A stretch of 10,890 bases of DNA from Thermoplasmata archaeon (GCA_034667685.1 JAXDQU010000026.1:1-10890), one strand, 5' to 3'. Shown: positions 1 through 10,890, counted from the stretch's first letter. The notes: a model not told the origin generated them from the letters alone. Program-made: numbers and translations.

Positions 1-83
1 CCGTCTTCCCTCGCTTCCCGTCTTCCCTCGCTTCCCGTCTTCCCTCGCTTCCCGTCTTCCCTCGCTTCCCCTCTTCCCTTCGT
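1..83. repeat. Tandem 17-bp repeat (CCGTCTTCCCTCGCTTC) x4 plus one degenerate copy; probably the pyrimidine-rich arm of a truncated hairpin element
   Basis: Exact copies at 1-17, 18-34, 35-51 and 52-68, then degenerate CCCTCTTCCCTTCGT (69-83). No spacers. The reverse complement recurs at 10825-10847. Confidence 0.95.
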
Positions 84-171
84 TTCCCCTCGTCCGTTCG
101 TCGGCTGATCCGCGGATCGTCCGAGCCGCCAGGCGACAACCTCATTCGGCGGGATTCCACCGGTGGCCGCA

Positions 172-2942: not shown

Positions 2943-3127
2943 GATTGGGCGGGCGTGTCGTGCGCTCCGAATCGCCGCGCCGTGGTCGTCGGCTCCCGAG
3001 GCGCGAACGCTGCGCGCCACGCTCCCGCGCGCGCCGGAGACCTCCCTCGACCTCGCGCGGCATCCGCTCGAAAACATCCCGACCGCGCCAGAAAATGCCA
3101 CAGGGTTCAAGTAGTCGCGCCAGCACG

Positions 3128-3616
3128 ATGAGAGACTGGATGCACGCCTTCGATGGCGTCGGCAGCACGAAGAAGATGCTCGCGCGAGAGCTCCTGCTCG
3201 CGTTCGGCACGCTAAGGTGCCCGGTCTGCGGCGACGAGAAGCCGGTGGAGAAGCTCACCAAGCACCACATCCACCCGCGCTCGCTGGGCGGCCCGACGGA
3301 CCTGCGCAACCTCGTGCTGATCTGCCGCGCGTGCCACGACGACGTGCACCACTTCCCGAGCGCGTTCTGGGCGCGCGCCGCGCTCGAGGCGTTCCTCAAC
3401 TGCCGCGGCGTGGACCACCCGTTCCCGCCGCCGCCCGAGCCCGAGAGCGCCGAGGACACGCTGCGGATCTTCTTCGTGCGCGCCAGCGCCCGCGTCGAGC
3501 GCGACCAGAAGACGGCCGAGCGCAAGCGCAACCCGCCGTTCAACCCCATGTGGCCCGTGGCGCGCCACTTCGGCACGCTGCGCGAGAAGGCGCTCCACCT
3601 GCCCGCCGAGGCGTGA
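3128..3616 (+). CDS. HNH endonuclease (McrA-like, Zn-binding) with a C-terminal extension
   Basis: CPVC...LTKHHIHPRSLGGPTDLRNLVLICRACHDDVH is the canonical CxxC/HH/GG/NL/CxxCH signature. Start is ATG 3128 or ATG 3140; TATA-like TTCAAGTA at 3106-3113 favours 3140. Confidence 0.9.
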   Translation: MRDWMHAFDGVGSTKKMLARELLLAFGTLRCPVCGDEKPVEKLTKHHIHPRSLGGPTDLRNLVLICRACHDDVHHFPSAFWARAALEAFLNCRGVDHPFPPPPEPESAEDTLRIFFVRASARVERDQKTAERKRNPPFNPMWPVARHFGTLREKALHLPAEA

Positions 3617-4652: not shown

Positions 4653-4732
4653 TCAACACGAAGGCACGAAGGCAAAAAGCCACGAAGAGCCTGGAAGCTT
4701 CGTGCCTTCGTGGCTTCGTGCCTTCGTGTTGA
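4653..4732. repeat. Intergenic hairpin element built from 8-nt CACGAAGG units
   Basis: Perfect 19-bp inverted repeat TCAACACGAAGGCACGAAG (4653-4671) / CTTCGTGCCTTCGTGTTGA (4714-4732), with four 8-nt units per arm. Confidence 0.92.
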
Positions 4733-5015: not shown

Positions 5016-5103
5016 TCCTCCAGCCACAGAGGACACAGAGGGCACGGAGGACGGAGGACAACAACGGCCTCTGTGTCCCTCTGTGTCCTCCGTGGCTGGA
5101 GGA
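5016..5103. repeat. Intergenic hairpin element built from 9-nt CACAGAGGA-type units, directly after the operon's last stop codon
   Basis: 27-bp arms 5016-5042 / 5077-5103 with one mismatch (a G-U pair on the minus-strand RNA), extendable inward. Lies 7 bp beyond the stop at 5111. Confidence 0.92.
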
Positions 5104-5110
5104 GGCGGCG

Positions 5111-6211
5111 TCAATGACGCGACACGAGGTAGATGAGCACGAGGTCCATGATGAACAGGACCACGACGATGCTCTCCAACGCCATGCCGCGGCGGTGCTC
5201 GACCTCGTGCGAGGCGAGCGTGTACAATTCGTTCAACGTCTGCATCTTCTCGCGCACGATGGACTCCCACTCGCTGAGGTGGAAGCGCTCGGTGAGGCCG
5301 ACGTGGAGCTTGGCGAGGTAGTAGTCGCCGAAGATCTTGCCGATGTTGTTGATGCTGTCCGTGACGCGGACGAAGTCGATGCGCGCCTCGGAGAGCTCTT
5401 CCTGGATGTTGCGCGCGCTGCGGAAGAGGCCGCCGCGGCCGTAGAAGCGCGTGAGGTCGTCGTAGGCGCGCTCCAGGACGAGGTCGAGGTAGCGGTCGTA
5501 GGCGCGCAGCTCCAGCAATTCGAGGTTCGCGCTCTCCATGACGCTGAGCACGTCGTCGTACTTGCCGCTGGGCTCGATGACGAGGGCGCGCTCCCAGTCG
5601 GCGACGACGAGGTCGTCCTGGTAGTAGCTGAACCACGTGCGCAGGTTGTCGGCCACCTCGTCGGCGCTGAGGCGCTCGGGCCTGCGCTCGCCCGCGACGA
5701 GGCCGGCGAGGGCCTGGCGCTCCAGGGTGAACAGCTCGCGCGCGGGGAGGTCGGTCTCCGTGAGGACGATGACCTGGTAGGGCTCGGGCTCGACGGGCGC
5801 GTCGTAGGTCTCAACGAGCGAGGCGCGCATGCGCGGCTCCAGCGTGCCCATGATCTCGCGCGCGATGCCCTCGAAGTTGGCGCCCTCGCGCGGGCGCAGG
5901 TGGCTCGCGTCGTTGACCTCCCGGATCGAGGCGAAGCGGAAGGGGAGGCGCAGCACGACGGCGATGGCGCCGATGGCGTAGACGTGCGCCTCGATCGCGA
6001 CGTCGAACGCGCCGTGCGTCGTCTCCAGCTTGCGCGGCGCGTAACGCAGCGTCAGCGGGCGCACGATCTGCACGTACGAGGGGGCGCTCTTGCCCGGCTC
6101 GATGCGCTCGGCCGTCTCGACGGTGGCGAGCAGGCGCGTGGCGTCGCTCATGCGGATCTCGCCGCCCAGGTCGAAGAGGAAGGTGAAGACGAACTCGCCC
6201 GCGTACGCCAT
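5111..6211 (-). CDS. RMD1/YagE (DUF155)-like protein with a C-terminal TM helix (366 aa)
   Basis: Begins MAYAGEFVFTFLFDLGGEI. Motifs SYYQDDLVVADW, ESANLELLELRAYD, KIFGDYYLAKL...RFHLSEWESIVREK and LESIVVVLFIMD. Strong SD GGAGGTGG at 6225-6218. Confidence 0.75.
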   Translation of the reverse strand: MAYAGEFVFTFLFDLGGEIRMSDATRLLATVETAERIEPGKSAPSYVQIVRPLTLRYAPRKLETTHGAFDVAIEAHVYAIGAIAVVLRLPFRFASIREVNDASHLRPREGANFEGIAREIMGTLEPRMRASLVETYDAPVEPEPYQVIVLTETDLPARELFTLERQALAGLVAGERRPERLSADEVADNLRTWFSYYQDDLVVADWERALVIEPSGKYDDVLSVMESANLELLELRAYDRYLDLVLERAYDDLTRFYGRGGLFRSARNIQEELSEARIDFVRVTDSINNIGKIFGDYYLAKLHVGLTERFHLSEWESIVREKMQTLNELYTLASHEVEHRRGMALESIVVVLFIMDLVLIYLVSRH

Positions 6212-6240
6212 GTGGTCCCACCTCCACGCGCAGCCGTCGG

Positions 6241-7080
6241 TCAGCGCCTGCGCAGCGCGAGCGCCGCGAGGGCGAGGGTCCCCAGCGCGAGCGGGAGCGC
6301 CGGCGCGGGGAGCTTGTGGGTGCCCCCGCCGCTGGCCGTCCCCTGCGTCGGGTCGGTCACGTAGAGGTGGAGGATGGGGATGTCCGCGTAATTGAACCCT
6401 CCCGATTGGCTGGCGAAACGGAGGTGGTACATCCCGGCCGTGGGGAAGGCGTACGAGGCGGTCCAGAGCCCCGTGCCCTGGTGGTCCATCGCCACGACGT
6501 GCGTGTCGTAGAGGATCGTGTGGTCGAGGCTCCAGTGCTCGACGCTCATGTTGAGGTCGTGGAGCTTGTCGACGCGGTGGCTGTCGAGCGGGTCGTCGAC
6601 CTCGATGGCGATCTGCGTCCGCTGGCCGGTCGTCAGGTCCTGGTTGGGGTCGGCCGACGCGATGCGCACGCCCACCTCGGGGTAGACGAGGAACGTCGTG
6701 GACTGCGAGTATTCCGTCCCGTTCTTGGCGCGCAGGGTGAACGTCGCGGAGTAGTTGCCCGCGGGTCCCAGCGCCATGCCCGCGACGAGGTAGCCCGTGG
6801 GGTCGTGGCCGAGGTTCACGCTCTTGTTCCAGCCGCCCGGGCCGACCATCTTCATCGTCCCCGTGAGGTCGGTGACGTAGTTGCCCGTGGCGTTGTCCGT
6901 GATCAGCGCCGAGAACGAGACGCTGTTGTTGCTGTAGAGGTCCTGCGGCTGGAGCTGGATGTAGGCCGCGTAGGGGCCCAGGGGCAGGCTCTGGTTCTGG
7001 CTGAAGGGGCCGATGTGGCCGCTCGCGGGCGGGACGAGGGCGAGGGCGACCAAGAGGGCGAGGGTGGGGACGGCGCGCAT
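6241..7080 (-). CDS. Surface-anchored His/Met-rich protein with two YtkA/FixH-like Ig-fold domains
   Basis: Signal peptide ...PPASG|HIGP. Strand motifs GPAGNYSATFT and FPTAGMYHLRF. His-rich second domain. C-terminal KLPA + hydrophobic helix + RRR. SD GGAGGT at 7091-7086. Confidence 0.75.
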   Translation of the reverse strand: MRAVPTLALLVALALVPPASGHIGPFSQNQSLPLGPYAAYIQLQPQDLYSNNSVSFSALITDNATGNYVTDLTGTMKMVGPGGWNKSVNLGHDPTGYLVAGMALGPAGNYSATFTLRAKNGTEYSQSTTFLVYPEVGVRIASADPNQDLTTGQRTQIAIEVDDPLDSHRVDKLHDLNMSVEHWSLDHTILYDTHVVAMDHQGTGLWTASYAFPTAGMYHLRFASQSGGFNYADIPILHLYVTDPTQGTASGGGTHKLPAPALPLALGTLALAALALRRR

Positions 7081-7083
7081 GCT

Positions 7084-7614
7084 CTACCTCCGGCGGACGA
7101 CGAGGGCGACGGCGACGAGCGCGAGGATGGCGCCCAGCGCGGCCTCGCCGCCGGACTTCTTCGCGGCGCCGCTGGAGGCGACGATCATCTCGCCGTACAT
7201 CTTGTTGTTCGCGTGGCCGGGCTTCGTGCAGAAGTAGTAGAACGTGCCGGCCTTCGACACGCTGGAGATGGTGACGTTCTTCTCGGCGTGGGCGGCGATG
7301 TCGTTGGTGAAGGTCCAGACGTCCTTGCACGTGGGCGAGAGGCTCGTCGTGGGATCGACGCCGTCGCCGCAGAACATCAGGTTGTGCGTGGAGTTGCCCC
7401 TGTTCTCGACGTGGAGCTTGAGCGTCTCGCCCTCCGCGACGTTGATCCGCTCGGGGAGGACGTGATAGCTTCCCGAGGGAAGCTCGTGGATCTGCACGTC
7501 GCACGACTCCACGGTGGCCGACTCCTGGACGCAGGCGCCCGGGTCGGGCGTGGGCTGCGCGAGGGCAAGGGGGGCCAGGAGCGTCGCGGCAAGGAGCAGG
7601 AGGATCGGTCGCAT
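7084..7614 (-). CDS. Surface-anchored cupredoxin (type-1 blue copper protein, 176 aa)
   Basis: Starts MRPILLLLAATLLAPLALA. Ligand set THN...GTFYYFCTKPGHANNKMYGEMIV (H; C-x4-H-x4-M). C-terminal KKSGG + TM + RRR. Confidence 0.92.
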   Translation of the reverse strand: MRPILLLLAATLLAPLALAQPTPDPGACVQESATVESCDVQIHELPSGSYHVLPERINVAEGETLKLHVENRGNSTHNLMFCGDGVDPTTSLSPTCKDVWTFTNDIAAHAEKNVTISSVSKAGTFYYFCTKPGHANNKMYGEMIVASSGAAKKSGGEAALGAILALVAVALVVRRR

Positions 7615-7619
7615 GGGGA

Positions 7620-9239
7620 TCACGAGGGGGCTTTCACGTCGACGTCGAAGGTGAGCTTGGCGAACTCGTCGGGCCTCTGCAGGAGCACCCAGACGCGCCA
7701 CGTGCCCACCGACGAGAAATAGGTATCCTCGCCGCTCCAGGTCTGCTCGTTGACCTTCTGGAGCGTGATTACGTCGCTGGGCTCCTTGGCGCCGGCCTTG
7801 GCGACCTTGATGGCGACGTCCGTGCCGCTGGGGATGTCCGCGGCGCTGAGCGGGTGCAGCGTGACGGCGAGCTTCTGGAGGCCGACCACGGGCGGGTTGG
7901 GGCTGATCTGGAGGACGACGTGCGTCGTCTTGCTCACGTTCGAAAGCTCCAGGTACGGCTGGGGCCCGATGGAGAGGTTCGCGGCGCCCTCCGGGGGCGC
8001 GGTGGAGGCGAGGACGCCCGCGGCGGCCAGCACGCAGACCATGGTGAGCGCCTCGACCTGGACGACGCGGCGGAAGAAGGCGGGCGAGGTCGCGCCGCGC
8101 CTCATGCGCGGGCCGAGGACCTCCTTGTTGTAGGCGCCGATGAGCACGAGCACGCCCAGGAGCAGCACCTTGAGCGAGACGAGCCGGCCGTAGGGATCGT
8201 TCCACAGGTCGCTCCACGCGGGGACGTGGCGCCAGCTCGCCCAGATGCCGGTGGCGAGAAGGACGCCGACGCTCGCGAGCGCCCAGGGCGTGAAGCGGAG
8301 CACGACGGCGGCGACCTGCTGCGCGGTGCGCCCCCAGACGGTGTGGAGGAAGCCGACCAGGCCGCCCACCCACACGGCGCCCATCGCGAGGTGCAGCATG
8401 TCGGCCGCGAGCGAGACGCCGCGAAGCTGCTGGTCCGCCGAGGCGTGGCTTCCCAGCGAGGCCGCGACGAGCGAGCCCGCCGCGAAGAGGATGCCCGCGC
8501 CCCCGAGCACGCGCCGCGCGCCGGGGGCGAGCGCGGCCACGAGCGCGCACAGGGCGCTCGCGCCCAGGAGGATGCCGCGCCAGAGGAACGAGAGCCCCGC
8601 GTCGGTCTGCGAGGCGTCCAGGAAGGAGAGCGCGGTGCGCTGCGCGAGGAAGAGGACGTTGAGCAGCGCGGCCGCGGCGCCCAGGAGGCCGAAGAGCGCG
8701 ACGGTGACGAACGCGCCGCGCGGCATCCCCGCGTCGCGGTCCACCACGAGCAGGAAGAAGGGGATCCCGAGCGCGAAGAACATGCCCGCGTAGTAGACGG
8801 CGCGCGCGAAGCCGTCCTTGACGACGTCGCCCGCCGCGTGGTCGTGCGCGGCGTTCGGGTCGATGGGCACCTGCACGGTCGCGTTGCCCACCGCGAAGAT
8901 GAACGCGCCCTCGGCCGTGTGCGAGTCGACGGAGAGCGACTTCCAGCTCACCGAGTAGAGGCCGTCCCGGAGCGGCGAGACGGGGACGTGGATCTGCGAG
9001 GCCTTCTGCGCGTCGAAGGCCACCGGGCCGGCCTTCACGCTGTTGCCTTGCAGGTCGAAGACGTCCGCGTCGGTGTAGCGGCGCTCGACCTGCTCGCTGA
9101 AGTTGATCGTGACCTCCGTGACGCCATAGCTCGCGTGCCCGTTGGCGGGCGGATCGGACGAGGCGTAGTTGGCATGCGCGGCGGCCAGCGGCGCCGCCAG
9201 GAGCAGCGCCGCCAGCGCGAGCAGGAAGGTCCGTCGCAA
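7620..9239 (-). CDS. copCD: CopC-CopD fusion copper transport protein (YcnJ/CutJ-like) with a C-terminal YtkA-like domain
   Basis: CopC: signal peptide then HANYASSDP, and YSVSWKSLSVDSHTAEGAFIFAV. CopD: TM region with GSHASA, LHLAMGAVWVGGL, LLATG and YGRLVSLK. Soluble C-terminal beta domain. TTG start. Confidence 0.93.
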   Translation of the reverse strand: MRRTFLLALAALLLAAPLAAAHANYASSDPPANGHASYGVTEVTINFSEQVERRYTDADVFDLQGNSVKAGPVAFDAQKASQIHVPVSPLRDGLYSVSWKSLSVDSHTAEGAFIFAVGNATVQVPIDPNAAHDHAAGDVVKDGFARAVYYAGMFFALGIPFFLLVVDRDAGMPRGAFVTVALFGLLGAAAALLNVLFLAQRTALSFLDASQTDAGLSFLWRGILLGASALCALVAALAPGARRVLGGAGILFAAGSLVAASLGSHASADQQLRGVSLAADMLHLAMGAVWVGGLVGFLHTVWGRTAQQVAAVVLRFTPWALASVGVLLATGIWASWRHVPAWSDLWNDPYGRLVSLKVLLLGVLVLIGAYNKEVLGPRMRRGATSPAFFRRVVQVEALTMVCVLAAAGVLASTAPPEGAANLSIGPQPYLELSNVSKTTHVVLQISPNPPVVGLQKLAVTLHPLSAADIPSGTDVAIKVAKAGAKEPSDVITLQKVNEQTWSGEDTYFSSVGTWRVWVLLQRPDEFAKLTFDVDVKAPS

Positions 9240-9268
9240 GGCAATCGCCGCCCACGGACCCTACGCTC

Positions 9269-9895
9269 TTAGCGCTTGCGCGCCAGCGCCACGGCCACCG
9301 CGCCGAGGCCCAGGACCACGAGGCCAAGCTCGACGGCGGGCGCGCCCTTGGTCGCGGAGGCGGGCGTGCTGGAGACGACCGTCGCGGGCGTGCTGCTGGT
9401 GGTCTTGGCCTTGGCCTCCAGCGCGGCGACGCGCGTCTGGAGGTCCTGCACCTGCGTGGCGAGGTCGCCGGAGGACGGGAAGGCGGCGTCGCTGCCGTTC
9501 TCCGCGGGCTCGATGGCGAAGTCCTGGCTGATCGGCGTGCTCGCGTCGAGCTTGCCGCCGACGTGGACCGTGTAGAGGCCCTCCTGCGTGGGCATGAGGG
9601 GCGCGCTGTAGTTGCCCGGGTCCTCGTCGGACTCCGCGAGCGCGAGCGTCTTCGTCTGGCCGCCGTGGGTCACGGTGACGTTGAGCGTGTCCGCGAGGCC
9701 GCTGACGCCCTCGCCCGTGTCGGTCTTCCAGACCTGGACGGTGACGTGGTTGCGCGCGCCGGAAGCCGCGGGCTCGTCGCCCCAGCCGACCTTGACGCTG
9801 TACGCGCCCTGGGTCTGGGTGACGTGCGCCGAGGCGGGCAGGGCGCTGAGCAGAAGGAAGCCGATCGCGATCAGGGGGAGCAGGATCTTGCGCAT
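9269..9895 (-). CDS. Surface-anchored secreted protein with N-terminal His, first gene of the copper operon (208 aa)
   Basis: MRKILLPL...LPASA|HVTQTQGAYSVKVGWGDEP, then a beta-rich domain, a short coiled coil (LATQVQDLQTRVAALEAK), a Ser/Thr linker and KGAPA + TM + RKR. SD GAGGTG at 9906-9901. Confidence 0.85.
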   Translation of the reverse strand: MRKILLPLIAIGFLLLSALPASAHVTQTQGAYSVKVGWGDEPAASGARNHVTVQVWKTDTGEGVSGLADTLNVTVTHGGQTKTLALAESDEDPGNYSAPLMPTQEGLYTVHVGGKLDASTPISQDFAIEPAENGSDAAFPSSGDLATQVQDLQTRVAALEAKAKTTSSTPATVVSSTPASATKGAPAVELGLVVLGLGAVAVALARKR

Positions 9896-9979
9896 GGAGA
9901 CACCTCGGGCCACAAGCCGATTTTTACAGGCCTCGAACGGCACGAGTTGCTTAAGCGTTCCGGATGCGATCGCGTGCCG
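9896..9979. promoter_or_regulatory. Divergent promoter region between the copper operon and the sensor/regulator pair
   Basis: 84-bp gap with two AT patches: TGTAAAAA (minus strand, 9928-9921) and palindromic GCTTAAGC (9949-9956, about 26 bp before ATG 9980). Inverted repeat CGGCACG (9938-9944) / CGTGCCG (9973-9979). Confidence 0.6.
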
Positions 9980-10291
9980 ATGTTCGTCCTGCTCGACGCG
10001 ACCAGCCCGGAGGCGACGCCGTACGCGTCGTTCATCTCCGCCGTCGCGGCCCTGCTCGCCACCGTCTTCGCCGTGGTCGCGTTCCGCGCCCTCGCCCGCA
10101 CCGGCAACCCCGCGCTGCGCTGGGTCGGGATCGCGTTCGTCCTGATGGCGCTCAAGGAGGTCTTCGCCGCCTACAACGTCGTGACCCACTTCGTGCCGCA
10201 CGACGCGATCGAGCTCGTGCTGGCGAGCTGCGACCTCGTCATCATGGGTCTGCTGTTCACGCCGCTCTTCCGCCGGCGCAGCAGGAGCTAG
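9980..10291 (+). CDS. Small three-TM membrane protein (103 aa), putative partner/sensor of the downstream regulator
   Basis: 3' part of track ORF 9563..10291 from MFVLLD. Three hydrophobic helices, AFRALARTGNPALRWVGIAF pattern, a THFVPHD loop and a basic tail. 4 bp before the wHTH gene. Confidence 0.8.
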   Translation: MFVLLDATSPEATPYASFISAVAALLATVFAVVAFRALARTGNPALRWVGIAFVLMALKEVFAAYNVVTHFVPHDAIELVLASCDLVIMGLLFTPLFRRRSRS

Positions 10292-10295
10292 CCGC

Positions 10296-10817
10296 GTGGC
10301 CGAGCCGCTCAAGGCCGGCATCCGCAAGCAGGTCTACGAGGCCGTCCGCCGCTACCCGGGCATCCACCTGCGCGCCCTGGAGCGCAACCTGGGCGTCTCC
10401 GCGCCCCTCGCGCAGTACCACCTGAAGCACCTCGCCAAGGCCGGCTGGGTGGAAGGGCGCGACCAGGGCGGCTACACGCGCTACTGGCCCACCGCGAAGG
10501 AGGCGCGCGTGCGCGACGCCGACCAGGCGATCCTGGGCATGCTCCGCGAGGAGGTGCCGCTCCACGTCGCGCTGCTCCTCCTGGACTTCGGCCCGATGAC
10601 GCACGGCGCGCTCGTGGAGCGCCTCGGCATGGCGAAGAGCAGCGTGAGCTATCACCTCGCCAAGCTCGCGCAGGCCAACATCGTCGAGCGCGAGCCCAAG
10701 ACCGCGCGGATCCGCCTCACCGATCCCGAGCGCATCACCGCGCTGCTGCTCGCGTACAACCCCACGCCCGACATGCTCGACTCGTTCGCCGATCTGTGGG
10801 GCGACCTGTACAAGTGA
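10296..10817 (+). CDS. Soluble double winged-HTH transcriptional regulator (COG3398/ArsR-like)
   Basis: RKQVYEAVRRYPGIHLRALERNLGVSAPLAQYHLKHLAKAGWV and GPMTHGALVERLGMAKSSVSYHLAKLAQANIV, with a C-terminal DSFADLW. GTG start. Confidence 0.9.
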   Translation: MAEPLKAGIRKQVYEAVRRYPGIHLRALERNLGVSAPLAQYHLKHLAKAGWVEGRDQGGYTRYWPTAKEARVRDADQAILGMLREEVPLHVALLLLDFGPMTHGALVERLGMAKSSVSYHLAKLAQANIVEREPKTARIRLTDPERITALLLAYNPTPDMLDSFADLWGDLYK

Positions 10818-10819
10818 TG

Positions 10820-10890
10820 ACGAAGGGAAGCGAGGGAAGACGGGAAGAAGGGAATCGCGGGGGAAGAAGGGGGCCGGTATGGGACCCTTC
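10820..10890. repeat. Purine-rich arm of a hairpin element of the same 17-bp family as 1-83, truncated by the window end
   Basis: GGGAAGCGAGGGAAGACGGGAAG (10825-10847) is the exact reverse complement of 14-36. ACGAAGGGAAG (10820-10830) mirrors 73-83. The final CCCTTC begins the return arm. Confidence 0.85.

Follow-up and report, generated by a model that had tools for sequence, protein, structure and literature searches.

The whole stretch of DNA analysed here (the window) is contig C26 at its full length of 10,890 bases (JAXDQU010000026.1), from the genome of a Thermoplasmata archaeon (GCA_034667685.1; 3.48 Mb, about 70% G+C), and it harbors an operon of four minus-strand genes that spans positions 9895-6241, with intergenic gaps of 29, 5 and 3 nucleotides (nt). 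Three of the four encoded proteins are predicted to expose a histidine as the first residue of the mature chain (His1). The reading proposed here, to which we assign a probability of roughly 0.6, is that the operon serves copper acquisition in the manner of the ycnJ-ycnI pair of B. subtilis, that its first product, P0001, is a Cu(II)-binding partner of the CopC domain encoded downstream, holding the metal in a mono-histidine brace, and that its last product, P0004, serves the cupredoxin encoded beside it. The features on which the argument rests are listed below, numbered from the first base of the window; residue numbers are those of the unprocessed proteins.

9269..9895, minus strand: P0001, 208 amino acids (aa), with a signal peptide (1-23), a His1 beta-sandwich domain (24-135) and a predicted helix (145-166)
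Residues 188-206 of P0001, minus strand: C-terminal membrane anchor, followed by a KR tail
9824..9826, minus strand: codon of P0001 His24, predicted mature residue 1
9770..9787, minus strand: GWGDEP motif of P0001, residues 37-42 (VGWGDEP, residues 36-42)
7620..9239, minus strand: P0002, 539 aa, TTG start, a CopC-CopD-YtkA-like fusion of YcnJ-type architecture
9174-9176, minus strand: codon of P0002 His22, predicted mature residue 1
8889-9176, minus strand: CopC domain of P0002, residues 22-117, with His1 and a D-x-H motif
Residues ~145-415 of P0002, minus strand: CopD core, by Pfam match
7692-7934, minus strand: YtkA-like domain of P0002, residues 436-516, a weak Pfam match
7084..7614, minus strand: P0005, 176 aa, a membrane-anchored type-1 cupredoxin with the pattern C-x4-H-x4-M
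6241..7080, minus strand: P0004, 279 aa, with a signal peptide (1-21) and a C-terminal anchor ending in an RRR tail
7015-7017, minus strand: codon of P0004 His22, predicted mature residue 1
6676-7017, minus strand: His1 N-domain of P0004, residues 22-135, homologous to the P0001 family
6346-6675, minus strand: second beta-sandwich domain of P0004, residues 136-245, with conserved His and Met residues

Two of the four proteins belong to known families. Judged by its sequence, P0002 is a true CopC member and an ordinary CopC-CopD-YtkA protein: its Pfam matches reach 55.3 bits for CopC (cut-off 23.3) and 75 bits for CopD (cut-off 32.1), with YtkA at an expect value (E) of 0.1, and it aligns from His1 to PfCopC (6tpb) with the D-x-H motif kept (SVDSH vs SVDTH). 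The same CopC-CopD-YtkA architecture is that of B. subtilis YcnJ (PMC8424229). P0005 reads as an ordinary cupredoxin, its copper loop being alignable with the type-1 loops of nitrite reductase, plastocyanin and rusticyanin. P0001 falls into no Pfam or NCBIfam family and P0004 into no NCBIfam family; both have only sub-threshold Pfam matches to Filamin and YtkA, with YtkA-like scores of 14.2 bits (P0001) and 17.5 bits (P0004) under a cut-off of 25.9.

The N-termini read MRKILLPLIAIGFLLLSALPASA/HVTQ in P0001, ..LLLAAPLAAA/HANY in P0002 and ..LALVPPASG/HIGP in P0004, where the slash marks the predicted cut. An earlier reading of this DNA, made from the sequence alone (the sequence-only reading), had pointed to the three His-first junctions ASA/HVTQ, AAA/HANY and ASG/HIGP. 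They are present exactly as it gave them, and none of the three proteins offers another position with small residues at -3 and -1 past the hydrophobic core. The sites were read by this -3/-1 rule and not by a signal-peptide predictor, and cleavage is a prediction throughout. In P0005 the predicted junction is ALA/QPTP, which would put Gln first and leave the protein with no His1. When the entire genome was scanned by a crude rule, 995 signal-peptide-like open reading frames (ORFs) were obtained, and 23 of them (2.3%) carry His at +1, the three operon genes and one P0001 paralog being among the 23; the pattern of the operon exceeds chance. The genome-wide rule is noisy, and family conservation is the stronger evidence. 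The same scan picked out further secreted-looking ORFs with His at +1 on contigs C2, C12, C25, C97 and C122, for example a 531-aa ORF on C12 (VAGA/HVIAP), a 666-aa ORF on C25 (ATLA/HTSEG), and ORFs on C97 (LASA/HLADV) and C122 (SALA/HVPHD).

A word-based search retrieved only five relatives of P0001. When these six sequences were made into a profile and run against 1.84 billion cluster representatives, 1666 representatives matched at E<=1e-3, 957 at E<=1e-10 and 13 at E<=1e-30. The P0001 family is large, unnamed and without a Pfam or NCBIfam model; the source names seen for it are all 'hypothetical protein', a protein-atlas search likewise gave unnamed clusters only, one cluster holds Nitrosopumilaceae records, and no description of it was found in literature searches that lay outside subscription journals and supplements. 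Conservation was counted over 155 sequences aligned to the profile, namely the six just mentioned and the other 149 of the best 150 of the 1666 matches (P0007 being in both). His24, the predicted mature position 1, is found in 154 of them, the remaining one having a gap at this column, and it is preceded by Ala at -1 in 150 and by Ala (131) or Val (19) at -3 in 150. Downstream of it lies a motif of the form G[WF]xxEP, made by Gly37 (151/155), Trp or Phe at position 38 (109 and 44, together 153/155), Glu41 (154/155) and Pro42 (154/155). Other conserved positions are Asn49 (150/155), Gly94 (153/155), Tyr96 (147/155), Pro102 (147/155), Gly106 (155/155), Tyr108 (150/155) and Gly114 (151/155). A MAFFT alignment of 103 of the 155 sequences, which omits P0026, P0050, P0067, P0081, P0096 and P0120-P0166, has H24, E41, P42, G94 and G106 as its sole invariant columns.

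This conservation bears directly on whether a free His1 amine would arise at all. Models of signal peptides are poorer for archaea than for bacteria, and signal peptidase might not cut before the His, in which case the segment would stay as an anchor or be cut elsewhere. Such an outcome is very unlikely, considering that the Ala at -1 and the Ala or Val at -3 are kept across bacteria and archaea, that the proteins already have a C-terminal anchor, and that the neighbouring CopC domains share the A/H junction, at which solved CopC is known to be processed. The conserved -3/-1 context thus favours the predicted His1 site over cleavage at another position.

The classical two-His brace, of the LPMO or CopC type, finds no support: apart from His1, no His of the P0001 family is invariant in the 155 aligned sequences, the next best being His111 in 82, and of the His residues of the P0004 N-domain only His22 is invariant in the 15 sequences available. 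Since a second invariant His is lacking, the likely site is a mono-histidine brace, which in P0001 would consist of His1 and Glu41 and would be YcnI-like. The sequence-only reading had assigned histidine-brace copper sites to both uncharacterised proteins; the classical form of the brace is not supported, and the mono-histidine form fits the sequences of the P0001 family.

The proposed likeness to YcnI goes beyond the brace. In YcnI, Cu(II) is held by the amine and N-delta of His27 and by the carboxylate of Glu50, with Trp137 over the metal, and the chain ends in a C-terminal membrane helix (PMC8424229). In P0001, too, the predicted signal-peptide cut falls before a His that is conserved, a conserved Glu follows some 20 residues later (His27/Glu50 in YcnI, His24/Glu41 in P0001), an aromatic residue is conserved as well, the ectodomain is a predicted beta-sandwich and a membrane helix lies at the C-terminus; both genes adjoin a CopC-CopD-YtkA fusion. 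Glu41 and the aromatic are putative counterparts of Glu50 and Trp137. That VGWGDEP close behind His1 recalls YcnI, as had been remarked from this one sequence, is in keeping with the family-wide conservation of Glu41 and of the aromatic at position 38, by the layout and by the place of the gene before CopC-CopD-YtkA. The differences are also clear. The aromatic of P0001 lies three residues before the Glu, whereas Trp137 is in the C-terminal part of YcnI; the profile of the YcnI family, DUF1775 (PF07987), gives no match to P0001 at E<=1; and while DUF1775 is described across the bacterial phylogeny (PMC8424229), the P0001 family reaches archaea. The earlier remark that P0001 does not look like YcnI in sequence agrees with this, and in the 103 aligned family members Pfam searches at E<=0.01 found no match to DUF1775, CopC, P19, DUF4198 or DUF6702, the commonest weak matches being Filamin (11), YtkA (8) and FixH (2). 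DUF1775 was not found in the genome of the window (99% complete), in a search in which the B. subtilis control was detected, nor in any of the five bacterial genomes examined (of unstated completeness) that carry the P0001 family.

P0001 and P0004 can be set against two other groups with an N-terminal His. CopC (PF04234, the Cu(II)-only C0-1 type) resembles them in the His placed first behind the predicted signal-peptide cut, in the beta-sandwich fold and in a proposed pairing with CopD, but neither of the two has a CopC match or a D-x-H motif. The second group comprises the N-terminal-His families found by 'signal strapping', namely DUF4198, DUF6702, Ang-1 and Ang-2, of which RbAng-1a holds copper through His1 and one O-donor (Asn41) in a mono-histidine brace placed ahead of a membrane permease domain (PMC12537917). 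These families resemble P0001 in the succession of a signal peptide and an invariant His1 on an immunoglobulin-like (Ig-like) sandwich (PMC12537917); their partner, however, is HupE/UreJ, not CopCD, and CopD is not mentioned in the main text of that paper (PMC12537917). Neither P0001 nor P0004 matches DUF4198 or DUF6702 (Pfam, E<=1).

The genomic neighbourhood of the P0001 family was surveyed in 80 bacterial loci, retrieved from species genomes with a 10-sequence subgroup alignment (A4) and one peptide pattern. Almost all come from uncultured Actinomycetota, Thermoleophilia, Chloroflexota and Dormiibacterota, with single records from Armatimonadota, Terriglobia and others. A tblastn search with the window's own domains located CopC in 69 of the 80 loci and CopD in 51, and neither a P0005-type cupredoxin nor P0004 in any. 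With respect to CopC, the loci are distributed as follows.

56/80 loci: CopC starts at most 250 nt downstream of the family gene, on the same strand
9/80 loci: CopC lies 600-900 nt downstream
3/80 loci: CopC lies upstream, on the same strand
1/80 loci: CopC lies on the opposite strand
9/80 loci: no CopC match, with at least 1 kb of downstream sequence present
2/80 loci: no CopC match, with a contig end within 1 kb

One of the nine loci without a match (L047) has an intervening gene and then a 661-aa ORF with a CopC-like start and a CopD match. CopC(-CopD) is therefore downstream in 66 of the 80 loci, 56 within 250 nt and 10 behind one gene of about 180 aa, and the one downstream gene checked by Pfam encodes CopC, CopD and FixH/YtkA. 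The family ORFs of these loci keep the features of P0001: G[WF]xxEP is present in 79 of the 80 (L041 has GLGSEP), 76 have a His behind a stretch resembling a signal peptide (73 by rule and three by eye; of the remaining four N-termini two are cut by contig ends and two are apparently out of frame), and 77 of the 79 complete ORFs end in a hydrophobic C-terminal membrane helix. Asp84 and His86 are invariant in all 28 aligned neighbouring CopC domains, and every one that reaches the N-terminus begins with His. The membrane protein of about 180 aa that lies between the family gene and CopC-CopD in ten loci (L037, L041, L042, L043, L047, L049, L066, L077, L087 and L088) begins with MLAHAG or a close variant in all seven starts read, and the three copies scanned (L042, L066, L047) have a sub-threshold match to DUF4399 with a best E of 1e-5.

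In archaea, 41 genomes of the phylum to which the window belongs were searched: 18 of them, the window's own included, have a match to the P0001-family profile and 12 to the P0004 profile, the 12 including all eight other genomes of the same family. The order P0001-like gene, CopC-CopD-YtkA, cupredoxin and P0004-like gene is repeated in the loci of four relatives (L095, L096, L097 and L101). A fifth locus (L098) has CopCD, the cupredoxin and the P0004-like gene on a contig that ends before the P0001-like gene, in another (L099) the P0001-CopCD pair and the cupredoxin-P0004 pair are 4.7 kb apart, and a further one (L100) holds a partial cluster. All the archaeal N-termini recovered, six of the P0001-like and seven of the P0004-like proteins, read small-x-small/His.

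The genome of the window also encodes a second member of the P0001 family on contig C25 (G000:C25:25951-26532; locus L002 1480-2115, minus strand), which is 36% identical to P0001 and carries the marks ASA/HMTAY and GFLNEP. In a quick tree of 96 domain sequences (FastTree, midpoint root), P0001 of the window groups with Nitrosopumilaceae-type representatives, and the CopCD-adjacent copies of three relatives group with the C25 paralog. As these copies do not group with P0001, two subtypes of the family can fill the slot before CopCD.

The P0004 family is rare and archaeal, with 15 sequences retrieved in a profile-seeded second search, and His22 is present in all of them. A comparison of the P0004 and P0001 families by hhalign gave a probability of 98.4% (E 6.8e-15) over 151 columns, with His22 placed on His24, and the P0001 profile in turn gives weak matches (E 1.8e-4 to 7.3e-4) to four P0004 homologs of relatives, in their N-domains. 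From this homology and these cross-matches it follows that P0001 and P0004 share one His1 domain and form one superfamily rather than two. The suggestion of two new families thus survives in part: both proteins are uncharacterised, and they belong together. The second domain of P0004 is marked by residues invariant in 15 of 15 sequences, namely W183, H187, M217, Y218, H219, R221 and H238. With regard to the YtkA-like domains of CopCD, hhalign gave a probability of 78.8% over 67 core columns for the P0001 family, which hints that the two are distantly related and of common origin; for the P0004 family the profile comparison showed no relationship to these domains (probability 1.5%). Neither profile has a significant match among PDB sequences: the best for the P0001 family is a filamin-type repeat at E 0.041, and with P0004 CrdA appears at E=1.

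Structure predictions place both His1 domains in one fold class. The AlphaFold2 model of P0001 has a mean predicted local distance difference test score (pLDDT) of 68.7, with most blocks of the sandwich at 81-95. Its first strand begins at His24, and strands 24-29 and 32-39 would be joined by a two-residue hairpin that sets His24 opposite Gly37. VIA-align was run against 48,161 PDB representatives, with the best 50 matches listed. For P0001 the top matches are the DUF4426 protein 3uc2 (Z 10.7, root-mean-square deviation (rmsd) 2.3, 106 residues aligned) and CrdA 9ll2 (Z 10.6, rmsd 2.3, 98 aligned), accompanied by HftA, FtrA-P19 and Tp34 at Z 10.0-10.4; further matches follow from 8.4 downward, with CopC structures at only Z 6.5-7.2, and FetP (3nrq), re-examined from the Foldseek list, gives Z 11.6 (rmsd 2.6, 113 aligned). 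The P0004 model has a mean pLDDT of 74.6, and its N-domain fits CrdA 9ll2 still more closely (Z 14.4, rmsd 1.8, 103 of 108 residues), ahead of DUF4426, HftA, Tp34 and FtrA (Z 11.0-11.5) and of the next match at 9.9; the whole model gives only generic tandem-Ig matches in Foldseek. The best structural matches of both His1 domain models are thus CrdA of H. pylori, the P19/FetP/FtrA/HftA/Tp34 group and DUF4426 (PA0388), which, DUF4426 apart, are periplasmic proteins that handle metal, mostly copper. The CrdA/P19 group has no significant sequence similarity to P0001 or P0004 and no Pfam Iron_transport match links them, and neither protein has a Met-rich loop in its sequence. YcnI structures are absent from the best 50 matches of either VIA-align search, an absence from a list that is no proof of a different fold, and YcnI is likewise absent from the 14 PDB sequences listed at E<=10 for the P0001-family profile. 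Because P0001 has no DUF1775 profile match and its nearest fold is a different one, it is not to be filed as DUF1775, and the evidence supports viewing it as a non-homologous analogue of YcnI for CopCD importers.

Fold neighbours of this kind raise the possibility that the His1 site binds another metal (Ni, Zn or Fe), or that P0001 acts like P19/FetP, a copper-containing periplasmic component of iron uptake. FetP, P19, FtrA, HftA and Tp34 are its best fold matches (Z 10-11.6). The copper site of P19/FetP is internal and is not known to involve the N-terminus. Families with an N-terminal His can prefer Ni, DUF4198 being titled secreted nickel-binding protein, and Ang-1 binds both Cu and Ni (PMC12537917); furthermore, the C25 paralog is not beside copper genes. 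The CopC(-CopD) gene found downstream in 66 of the 80 bacterial loci, and again in the archaeal operon, speaks for copper, and an iron-uptake role finds neither a Pfam Iron_transport/P19 match in P0001 (E<=1) or in the 103 family members (E<=0.01) nor an iron-permease gene in the window. We regard a function of either sort as unlikely.

A plainer view would be that P0001 and P0004 are ordinary Ig-like surface proteins in which the His and the Glu-Pro are needed for folding or processing and not for metal. Beta-sandwich folds are common, the Pfam matches of both proteins are the weak ones to Filamin and YtkA, and the generic tandem-Ig matches of P0004 would agree with it. The residue at +1 is normally free, however, as the 2.3% of His in the crude genomic set illustrates, yet the two families have His there in 154 of 155 and 15 of 15 sequences, and without a role in copper it is difficult to account for the close linkage to CopC-CopD; this view is quite unlikely.

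For P0004 a more specific alternative has to be weighed, in which the working site is the C-terminal His/Met cluster (W183, H187, M217, H219 and H238), His22 is no ligand, and the protein is a Cu(I) chaperone of the YtkA/PCuAC type for the cupredoxin. The cluster is invariant in 15 of 15 sequences, residues 166-221 have a weak YtkA match (E 0.0064, below cut-off), the P0004-like gene stays beside the cupredoxin gene even where it is parted from CopCD (L099), and the model has low confidence around His22. His22 is equally invariant, though, and aligns with His1 of the P0001 family, and the profile comparison with the YtkA-like domains of CopCD speaks against that kinship. A P0004 that works through the cluster to the exclusion of His22 seems doubtful, and both sites may well be used.

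The model proposed for the operon combines these elements. P0001 would be exported, and its free His1 amine and imidazole, together with the invariant Glu41, would form a solvent-exposed mono-histidine-brace Cu(II) site with W/F38 beside it, carried on a beta-sandwich of the CrdA/P19 type. At the membrane surface the protein would catch Cu(II) or act as a buffer for it, and would exchange it with the CopC domain of P0002, whose metal site is made of His1, Asp and His, much as YcnI exchanges Cu(II) with the CopC domain of YcnJ (PMC12362106); from the P0002 domain the copper would be fed to CopD. P0004, with its diverged His1 domain and a second domain holding the conserved His/Met cluster, always travels with the anchored cupredoxin, to which it probably passes copper or which it otherwise serves; the simplest reading makes it a copper relay or a maturation factor for the blue copper protein, and this is the weaker part of the model. 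The superfamily of P0001 and P0004 is probably a new kind of copper-catching partner protein. The interpretation given in the sequence-only reading is in this sense partly supported, with copper binding, cleavage and the His-Glu geometry remaining at the level of prediction.

Several points weigh against this model. The C25 paralog adjoins a Zn-type alcohol dehydrogenase gene and a helix-turn-helix (HTH) gene, not CopCD. The 80 bacterial loci are kin from one subgroup, so that their count shows the habit of one branch and not 80 independent events, and eight of them lack a neighbouring CopC gene on contigs that continue for 1 kb or more downstream. The AlphaFold2 model of P0001 was built on a 6-sequence alignment, the block of residues 41-50 that holds Glu41 has a mean pLDDT of only 56, and the proximity of His24 and Glu41 is derived solely from the predicted hairpin. 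In the P0004 model the region of His22 is of low confidence as well (blocks at 40 and 53); moreover, at the acidic position where 10 of the 15 members of its family have Glu, P0004 carries a Gln, and this position is not matched to Glu41 by hhalign. Finally, the structural neighbours CrdA and P19/FetP bind copper at other sites. CrdA is described as being without His or Cys and is thought to bind copper via a Met-rich loop (PMC9182242); as it lacks His, the fold class is common to copper-handling proteins and the proposed His1 site is not theirs.

A bolder version of the proposal would make the His1-G[WF]xxEP domain a third, structurally distinct His1 scaffold for Cu(II), a CrdA/P19-type sandwich that arose independently of those of CopC and YcnI and which replaces YcnI beside CopCD, with P0004 as a two-site relay; we put this forward tentatively and would not count on it. 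If it were true, P0001 would be the replacement of YcnI across archaea, ammonia oxidisers included, and across several mostly uncultured bacterial phyla, and P0004 would take Cu(II) at His1 and hand the copper via its His/Met domain to the membrane-anchored blue copper protein. The matter is of wider interest, as the capture of scarce extracellular copper by cells is poorly understood. In N. viennensis, genes for exported proteins of unknown function near copC/D rise under copper limitation (PMC7785015). A hand-over of Cu(II) from YcnI to YcnJ has recently been proposed as a new paradigm (PMC12362106), which the P0001 family would extend to archaea and to the uncultured soil lineages of Actinomycetota, Thermoleophilia, Chloroflexota and Dormiibacterota, providing a clean case of convergent use of an N-terminal His on a different fold.

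Divergent from the operon lie two further genes.

9977-10291, plus strand: DUF7521 membrane protein gene
10296-10817, plus strand: HVO_0163/MarR-type HTH regulator gene

The pair (9977-10817, plus strand) is kept beside the operon in the loci of four relatives (L095, L096, L097 and L105) and is a candidate copper-responsive regulator, in a position analogous to that of YcnK. HVO_0163-type HTH and DUF7521 families, together with an archaeosortase A match above cut-off (144.9 bits, G000:C34:5140-5937), also give the genome its archaeal look. P0001, P0005, P0004 and the C25 paralog have C-terminal helices with Arg/Lys tails that look like PGF-CTERM archaeosortase signals; the tail of the C25 paralog reads PGFEVAL and those of close P0001 homologs PGFEV or PGLEV, and the NCBIfam search lists no match of the PGF-CTERM model for P0001 or P0004.

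On the other side of the operon, a 367-aa ORF (5111-6214, minus strand) starts 26 nt past the stop of P0004. It has a C-terminal membrane helix and no Pfam family, is 67-87% identical across four relatives, which is above the conservation of the copper proteins themselves, and in those relatives is always the next gene behind the P0004-like one; a fifth member of the operon may be encoded here. The gene-poor stretch between this ORF and a YdjM-like gene contains two inverted repeats, one at 4653-4732 (35-nt arms, 10 nt apart, 89% complementary) and one at 5016-5103 (27-nt arms, 34 nt apart, 96% complementary). Further along are minus-strand genes for tRNA-Pro(TGG) and tRNA-Asp(GTC), at 2575-2647 and 2798-2871, adjoined by an ORF with an HNH endonuclease domain (2945-3616). 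The contig opens with five tandem copies of a 17-nt unit (CCGTCTTCCCTCGCTTC; window 1-85), whose reverse complement recurs at 10819-10847, about 45 nt from the other contig end, and this unit is probably a repeat at which the assembly broke.

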